Made by a program: the position numbers and the translations under genes. A stretch of DNA of 64,000 nucleotides from an uncultured bacterium (GTDB taxonomy: Bacteria > Verrucomicrobiota > Verrucomicrobiia > Chthoniobacterales > SZAS-18): the NCBI GenBank assembly GCA_963795895.1, contig CAWCJJ010000030.1, forward strand, positions 35,356 to 99,355. Reading direction: 5' to 3'. The notes below the pieces were generated by a model. That model was not told the DNA's origin. It ran no database searches and was given only the letters and a program-made list of their open reading frames with translations. Of the stretch, positions 55,075 through 56,125 are shown piece by piece; the first letter of the stretch is position 1, and each line of letters starts with the position of its first letter.

Positions 55075-56125
55075 CGAAAGTTTTTGCATGGTAAACCCGT
55101 CCCGTTATGTTAATGGCAAATGAATCCGACGCAATCGATTTTGCTGGAGCGGCGCAGCAACGCGGTCGCCGCCGTGGAACGGGGGGAGGCGGCGGCCGTG
55201 GTGGCGCGCGTCAACGCCATCCCCATGCGCACGCTCTTTGGCTGGCTGGCGCGCTACCGCGCCGGGGGCTGGGCCGCCCTGCTTGACCGCCCGCGCAGCG
55301 GGCGCCCGCGCAAGGCCGACCCGGAGACGGCCCTCTGGCTGCGCGAGGCCGTCGTCGCAAACGACCCGCGCCGCCACGGCTTCGAGTTTCGCCTCCGGAC
55401 GCTGGCGGTCGTCCGGGGCGTGCTCCAAAGGCACAGGGGCCTGGAGCTGAGCAAAAGCGCGCTCTGCCGGCTGCTCAAGGAACTGGGCCTGACCCCGCGG
55501 ACGCCCGCGCGCCGCTCCTACAAACAGGACGCCGGCGACCGCGCGGAGTGGCTGCGGCGCACCTTTCCCAAGCTGCGGCGGCTGGCCAAGCGCGTCGGCG
55601 CGGACCTCTACTTCGTGGACGAGAGCGCCGTGCGAAGCGACCACTTTTTTTTTTTTTTTTTTTTTTTTTTTTTAAAAAAAAAAAAAAAAAAAAAAAAAAA
55701 AAAAAAAAAAAAAAAAAAAAATCCGCGCGGGGACCTGCGCTTCGCGGTCATCGAGGGCCGCATGGACTCGGAGCGGTTCGTCGCCTTTCTGCGGGACCTG
55801 CGCGCCGACGCGGGCCGCCCGATCATCGTCGTGGCCGACAACGCCAGCTGCCACGGCTCGGCGCGCGTGGAGGCGTTCGTCAAGGAAAACGAGGAGATCC
55901 ACCTCGCCCGCCTGCCGGCCTATTCGCCCGACCTCAACCCCGACGAGCAGGTCTGGAACCACCTCAAGCGAAGGCCCGGGCAACTGGTGGTGGACAGCAA
56001 GGCGGCCATGCGGGAGGCGACCCTCGCGATTATGGAATCCATTCGGGATCGGCGCGACTTGGTGAGGTCTTTCTTTAGGATGGAAGGCACCCCCTATGCC
56101 GCTATGTAACATGCGAAGACTTACG
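55075..56125 (+). mobile_element. IS630-family element, copy B (single ORF 55120..56109 containing a T29-A48 tract)
   Basis: Ends are cgaaagtttttgcatggtaaacc (55075..) and gtaacatgcgaagacttacg (..56125). The transposase reads MNPTQSILLERRSNAV...YFVDESAVRSDH-[F9 L K15 N]-PRGDLRFAVIEG..VVADNASCH..DLNPDEQVWNHLK. Confidence 0.85.
55645..55721. repeat. T29 followed directly by A48 (homopolymer palindrome) inside the IS630 transposase
   Basis: Counted directly: T at 55645..55673 and A at 55674..55721. The tract replaces the 31 codons PRGGTWGARGQTPVVAESGDRFGLNPVSAVS present in copy A, and the reading frame is preserved. Confidence 0.95.

Follow-up and report, generated by a model that had tools for sequence, protein, structure and literature searches.

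A T29A48 homopolymer block inside an IS630-family transposase gene: a probable technical artefact at the site of a 93-nt presence/absence polymorphism

In a 64,000-nt stretch of DNA from an uncultured member of the Verrucomicrobiota (contig CAWCJJ010000030.1 of assembly GCA_963795895.1; hereafter the window), the transposase gene of an insertion sequence contains 29 consecutive T followed directly by 48 A. Two questions are raised by this locus: (i) is the block part of the organism's DNA and (ii) if it is not, at what stage of sequencing or assembly was it introduced. For the first question, the evidence assembled here indicates that the block is very probably technical and absent from the organism's DNA. 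For the second, we see about an even chance that it arose at the consensus stage, at a site where the underlying sequences were heterogeneous for an indel.

The block and the insertion sequence that carries it

The features of the locus are collected in Table 1. The tract is unbroken and has sharp edges (...GCGACCAC-T29-A48-TCCGCGCGGGG...), and its two runs are the only homopolymers of at least 9 bases in the window, where the next longest has 8. Given the base composition of the window, the expected number of T29A48 matches is ~10^-50, and the block is therefore not a product of chance. An earlier note, made from the letters alone, had placed the 29 T and 48 A at 55645–55721, and both the coordinates and the uninterrupted runs are confirmed. 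That note also described the setting as GC-rich, which is correct for the window overall (61% GC) but not for the immediate surroundings of the block, which are AT-rich islands of 44–51% GC broken by GC-rich IS copies. The self-complementarity to which it drew attention is real in the sense that a T run precedes an A run, but this is a by-product of the form that such blocks generally take, and the flanks are not palindromic. A DNA fold across the block has an energy of −33.2 kcal/mol, which at z = −1.97 relative to shuffled sequences is unremarkable, and a special meaning of the hairpin was rejected.

Pfam assigns the transposase of this insertion sequence (copy A) N-terminal HTH_29, HTH_32 and HTH_33 domains and a C-terminal DDE_3 domain that is matched over HMM positions 47–132, with positions ~16–46 missing. 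Precomputed domains of the best 120 relatives agree with this IS630-family architecture. The reading frame is open across the tract (...VRSDH-F9-L-K15-N-PRGDLRF...). Within the DDE_3 domain the tract has the first Asp (FVDES) on one side and the second (VADNAS) on the other, and it encodes 26 residues of the protein as assembled. The earlier reading of a Phe9-Leu-Lys15-Asn segment, in an open frame between the first and second catalytic acidic residues, agrees with both the ORF translation and the Pfam assignment. The 31 residues found here in relatives (P0003 and the second copy in the window) are either absent or overwritten, and the spacing of the first two catalytic Asp residues is not intact. 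Judged from its sequence, the copy A transposase is most likely inactive, with 31 residues between these two Asp residues deleted or overwritten. The ends of copy A differ somewhat according to how they are drawn, at 55061–56138 by similarity to a relative's contig (L122, below) and at 55070–56130 by the terminal inverted repeats, and no clear flanking TA pair was seen.

The sister copy in the window (copy B) is a pseudogene whose frame is broken by single-base shifts; it has also lost 24 nt and diverged at its 3′ end. At the position of the block it carries 93 nt (31 codons) encoding PRGGTWGARGQTPVVAESGDRFGLNPVSAVS; CCGCGCGGGG opens this segment and CCGCGCGGGA follows directly after it. The comparison with other IS630 copies that the earlier note had proposed was made within the window, and copy B showed an ordinary 93-nt segment and no block.

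Each of the two IS copies adjoins a member of one uncharacterised gene family (44907–45533 and 53309–54370, both on the minus strand), and the two encoded proteins are 30% identical over 187 aa (E = 5e-22) and have no Pfam match. Immediately to the right of copy A there is a gene for a 172-aa TPR protein (56207–56725, minus strand), and also on this side lies a second, unrelated transposase gene of IS5-like type with DDE_Tnp_4 and HTH_Tnp_4 domains (56844–57755, plus strand). In exact look-ups of window proteins, the TPR protein was the only one with a match in public protein records (NCBI and ENA). Between 45 and 58 kb, AT-rich islands (44–52% GC) and GC-rich mobile elements form a mosaic. 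On the relative's contig L122, faint RHS-repeat genes are found near the element, and on this basis the 45 to 58 kb region may be a toxin/immunity-type island.

Table 1. Coordinates of the block, the two IS copies and their parts in the window
Feature	Position	Strand	Remarks
Sister IS copy B	45574..46616	-	~84% identical, degenerate; with normal 93-nt segment
IS copy A	55061..56138	+	Full extent of similarity to ENA contig L122 (blastn)
Left terminal inverted repeat of copy A	55070..55093	+	18/24 bases complementary to 56107-56130
IS630-family transposase ORF	55120..56109	+	329 aa as assembled, 303 aa without T29A48T; Pfam; relatives 333-336 aa
GACCAC	55639..55644	+	Left edge of indel polymorphism; last sequence common to all copies before the tract
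T29 run	55645..55673	.	First half of junk block; absent from L121 and L122
A48 run	55674..55721	.	Second half of junk block; absent from L121 and L122
Single T of ambiguous origin	55722	+	Equals last base of AGT (Ser) ending the 90-nt segment of L122; absent from L121
CCGCGCGGGG	55723..55732	+	Surviving copy of 10-nt direct repeat; right edge of tract
Right terminal inverted repeat of copy A	56107..56130	-	Pairs with 55070-55093

The same element elsewhere and the 93-nt polymorphism

The transposase sequence, with the 26 block-encoded residues removed, was searched against 5.8 billion proteins. The best relative (P0001) is a 303-aa protein that is identical over its whole length and is encoded on Logan contig ERR11523670_4918487 (L121), a k-mer assembly of the public run ERR11523670 whose reads may not be independent of those behind the window. 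This 972-nt contig matches window positions 55078–55644 with two mismatches and 55723–56127 with none, has nothing between the two segments and differs overall at 2 of 972 bases. In this copy CCGCGCGGGG follows GACCAC without interruption (L121 positions 562–577), and both the tract and the 31 codons are missing. The variant appears to be multi-copy, because the k-mer contig begins and stops at the IS ends.

A second relative (P0002; ENA ERZ25039523 contig_33391, here L122, positions 1693–2694) is ~98% identical at the DNA level and has at the block position an ordinary 90-nt coding segment, ending ...GTCAGT before CCGCGCGGGG. A 1-nt deletion shifts the P0002 reading frame locally (…RRLARRSARTSASWTRAPCEATTSAGARGAGG…) until a 2-nt deletion brings it back, which could be due to long-read assembly indel errors or to real decay. 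The remaining relatives listed are 333–336 aa long and have 31 residues at the block position. The block is absent from copy B, from L121 and L122 and from the best 120 relatives listed. By overall similarity, the window copy is much closer to the deletion variant L121 (99.8%) than to the full-length L122 (~98%).

In full-length copies the segment starts with CCGCGCGGGG and is followed by CCGCGCGGGG/A, so that a 10-nt direct repeat brackets the 93 nt. Comparison of the copies suggests that the 93-nt difference is probably a genuine in-frame, microhomology-mediated deletion between these repeats that inactivates the transposase. The edges of the tract coincide to the base with both ends of this presence/absence polymorphism, and the probability that a random event would strike that exact position is ~1 in a thousand within the IS alone. 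These comparisons also qualify the earlier statement that the tract replaces 31 codons: copy B does carry 93 nt at this place, but the closest copy found elsewhere, in the Logan assembly, is without those codons. Relative to the Logan copy the block is a 78-nt insertion at the deletion joint, and replacement of 31 codons is one of two possible readings.

Distribution of T/A blocks among genomes

To place the block in a wider setting, T20A20 was searched for in one genome per prokaryotic species (185,579 species; GTDB species representatives), and at least 120 loci were found (L001–L120). Among the matches listed, 112 of 120 are in MAGs named MFD#####.bin, and three more (HOU_bin, LOGT_bin) have the same Flye-style contig_N naming as the MFD MAGs. 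The other five listed loci comprise an insect symbiont of 11% GC, three single cases and a junk contig of 732 bp (L035, Pantoea conspicua) that is made up only of ~20-nt homopolymer blocks of all four bases. The listed MFD loci belong to Acidobacteriota, Actinomycetota, Proteobacteria, Planctomycetota, Verrucomicrobiota, Chloroflexota, Nitrospirota, Gemmatimonadota, Bacteroidota, Fibrobacterota and Omnitrophota and include a Methanobacteriaceae archaeon, and with the archaeon they cover at least 12 phyla. Most of these loci have 55–73% GC. Their T and A runs extend from 20 to 7162 nt, with medians of ~80 each, and are often strung together with more runs of T, A, G or C. Examples of long blocks are A7162 (L072), T2714+A89 (L066), T2669+A281 (L004) and T593+A1016 (L017).

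The MFD MAGs constitute the Microflora Danica long-read catalogue, a Nanopore-only resource for which Guppy sup basecalls were assembled with Flye 2.9.2 (--meta --nano-hq) and passed through one round of Medaka 1.8.0 (PMC12313526). Its 15,640 species-level MAGs make up at most ~8% of the species set, and under equal rates the probability of 112 MFD loci in 120, among the matches listed and taken as order-neutral, is ~1e-109. The blocks follow the sequencing project across phyla and reach kilobases of a single base, which argues for a technical rather than a biological source. On statistical grounds we infer that the window belongs to the MFD set and comes from a Nanopore-only metaFlye plus Medaka assembly. 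A search of the literature, including the MFD project paper (PMC12313526), found no description of such homopolymer blocks.

Two other collections served as controls. Among 241 million JGI/ENA metagenome records there are at least 120 loci with T20A20 (L123–L242; 123 junctions listed). The listed junctions lie mostly within 100 nt of a locus end (84/123) and in loci of <45% GC (107/123); only 3 of 123 are in loci of at least 55% GC, and the longest run is no more than 79 nt. They also cluster by dataset, with Ga0209960 providing 22 of the first 80 loci listed, and those not at contig ends are mostly in contigs of ~26% GC, which are probably eukaryotic. The 2.9 million viral contigs searched gave 2 matches. 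Long T/A blocks inside GC-rich prokaryotic contigs are thus nearly confined to one long-read pipeline.

This distribution bears directly on the possibility that the block is real DNA, either a repair scar or the result of template-independent synthesis in a defective IS, with poly-dT added to both 3′ ends of a break or with runaway slippage. Bacterial enzymes that make homopolymeric DNA are known, the ORF stays open and the position of the block is that of a microhomology-mediated deletion joint, a point of past break repair, all of which would suit such an origin. Against this, (i) the same sequence in the Logan assembly has a clean joint, (ii) more than 12 phyla have blocks of the same form, yet among the matches listed these are almost confined to the assemblies of one project, (iii) the blocks reach 7 kb and destroy essential-looking genes, (iv) two poly-dT tails would be unable to anneal together and (v) an open frame is expected by chance in ~2/9 of cases, as the product of the length class (1/3) and a TTA rather than a TAA junction codon (2/3). 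We therefore regard a repair or synthesis product as extremely unlikely. The earlier note had offered two branches of explanation, an artefact of assembly, gap filling or library preparation and a very unusual slippage or repair product; the project-specific distribution and the Logan assembly of the same IS without the block speak for the former, and the latter found no support.

In a library-level origin, two fragments would have been joined through homopolymer tails, either in chimeric molecules or after an enzyme had added tails at the end-repair, dA-tailing or amplification step. The shorter T(n)A(m) junctions of short-read metagenome assemblies, which are found mostly at contig ends, are consistent with this, and their clustering by dataset indicates that library or assembler-specific sources exist. 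Both flanks of the block in the window, however, are collinear parts of one gene and not unrelated fragments. From the chemistry of ligation, a dA-tailing junction is expected to have A-then-T polarity, the opposite of the T-then-A order seen here. Fold-back chimeras are excluded because the flanks are not reverse complements: when the left flank is compared with the reverse complement of the right, the best local score reaches 12 in the window, against a median of 8 for 113 blocks. Taken together, these points make a library-level source very unlikely for this block.

The length of the block invites one further explanation, since 29 + 48 = 77 and 77 is a common top k-mer size in de Bruijn-graph assembly. 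The source assemblies, however, are almost all long-read Flye products, and in 138 junctions from other genomes the sum of T and A ranges from 27 to 7251 with no preferred value. A k = 77 artefact is refuted by these sums, and we assign it a negligible probability.

Origin of the block, its consequences and known counterparts

The effects of the blocks on genes are seen in two further loci. In a Rokubacteria MAG (L098, positions 1222–1318), T43A54 interrupts a B12-binding radical-SAM gene at a point where homologues of 80–89% identity have ~49 conserved residues (VVVAEAEDTWPRVLEDARRGKLEPVYVSTRQASLAGMPAPRWDLIKARR), and 97 nt take the place of ~145 nt. In L107 (positions 6852–6901), T22A28 separates the AWL and TIMRN motifs of an ECF sigma factor by more than the single residue expected; this block is a near-pure insertion of 50 nt for ~2 nt (~48 nt added) and creates an in-frame TAA. 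Exact-length overwriting or masking of sequence was rejected on the strength of these cases together with the window, where 77 nt stand for either 0 or 90–92 nt.

The preserved frame that the earlier note emphasised is real, in that the ORF is open, but it is evidence of nothing given the chance expectation above and the stop codon in L107. Selection for an intact frame was rejected for the same reasons, and an analysis of GC3 phase had too few clean in-gene cases to contribute. The three in-gene cases all have a net length change that is divisible by 3 (+48, −48 and, in the window, +78 or −15), a pattern that is not interpretable in so small a sample, two members of which were chosen for being in frame.

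Flanking repeats were considered as well. A ~45-nt direct repeat is present on both sides of the block in L030 (7114–7260), the block in L075 (2466–2575) lies within tandem repeats and the 10-mer GTAACACTGA flanks the block on both sides in L027 (2075–2127). These three cases are compatible with consensus trouble at sites of repeat-length variation, but a general link between blocks and flanking direct repeats was rejected, as only 4 of 78 blocks exceed the 95th percentile of controls.

Our preferred explanation for the block in the window is a disagreement over a long indel during consensus building. The real sequence here would be an IS630-family element without the block, most probably the 303-aa deletion derivative represented by the Logan contig, in which GACCAC would have become joined to CCGCGCGGGG after 93 nt were lost between the two 10-nt direct repeats. 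IS copies or strains with and without the 93-nt segment would have coexisted in the read set, the reads and the draft would then have disagreed by a long indel exactly at the site of the block, and the consensus or polishing step may have output a T run and then an A run in place of either real allele. We favor this reading because the edges of the block match the ends of the polymorphism to the nucleotide. A hint that the draft was of the full-length type comes from position 55722, where the T matches the AGT codon of L122. The consensus-stage mechanism does not obviously fit L107, where ~48 nt were added to an otherwise intact gene, nor does it obviously fit the kilobase blocks, which it could explain only if the draft already held unsupported sequence.

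These last cases are better accommodated at the level of the reads. One or more Nanopore reads may have contained signal that was miscalled as poly-T and then poly-A, for example during a motor stall or a period of abnormal current; metaFlye would then have taken the bad read as the draft backbone, and polishing would have left the block in place. Kilobase blocks such as T2669 and A7162 are beyond a polisher that works column by column, and some blocks must therefore stem from reads or from the draft. The near-pure insertion of ~48 nt in L107 is also in line with a read-level source, as is the block in L098, which is shorter than the stretch it replaced (97 versus ~145 nt), as would be expected of miscalled signal. 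For the window, on the other hand, chance would have had to place such an event at precisely the two ends of the 93-nt indel polymorphism. In addition, the pipeline required a minimum read coverage of 8 for large datasets (PMC12313526), and several clean reads should outvote one bad read. We consider a read-level origin possible for the window but less probable than the consensus-stage origin. Under either of the two, the block is not in the DNA.

One further reading is that the block marks a real peculiarity of the DNA, either a template-independent poly(dT)/poly(dA) insertion at the deletion joint or a lesion, modification or structure at which the nanopore signal fails systematically. We hold this to be highly improbable. 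Were it true, at least some of the blocks in long-read MAGs would reflect biology that is out of reach of short-read assembly.

As biology, the locus calls for no new mechanism. The underlying IS has one small real feature of its own, the 93-nt in-frame deletion that removes part of the catalytic domain. The greater significance is for data quality: homopolymer blocks that range from tens of bases to 7 kb occur in over 110 MAGs that serve as species representatives in a widely used reference set. Such blocks break genes, yield false low-complexity poly-Phe or poly-Lys 'proteins' and can misdirect searches for unusual sequence. They would be flagged by a simple filter for T or A runs of at least 20 bases inside contigs of >50% GC.

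Four systems provide points of comparison. Copy A resembles the IS630/Tc1-mariner insertion sequences in its HTH_29, HTH_32, HTH_33 and DDE_3 domains, its imperfect terminal inverted repeats of ~24 nt, its element length of ~1.0–1.1 kb and its 333–336-aa relatives, which are named IS630 family transposases, but 31 residues that relatives have between the first two catalytic Asp are missing from it. Phase-variable simple-sequence contingency tracts likewise place a homopolymer inside a coding sequence. Natural tracts of this kind, however, are single runs, usually of <20 nt, that are conserved in position among strains and switch the reading frame, whereas the window has two complementary runs totalling 77 nt that are absent from the same element elsewhere. 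A natural phase-variable tract was rejected on these grounds, the two runs having no counterpart in copy B, L121, L122 or the relatives listed. Slipped-strand deletion between short direct repeats finds its likeness in the Logan copy, which keeps exactly one CCGCGCGGGG repeat; such a deletion accounts for the missing 31 codons but not for the T/A block. The block itself is most like the homopolymer-block artefacts of the MFD long-read assemblies: a T run abuts an A run with sharp edges, internal to a GC-rich prokaryotic contig, and the block breaks into coding sequence or stands in its place, is not conserved in relatives and has flanks that are not palindromic. It differs from many of these in being at the short end of their range (77 nt, compared with a median of ~80 per run and a maximum of 7162) and in consisting of one T-to-A unit to which no G or C blocks are added.
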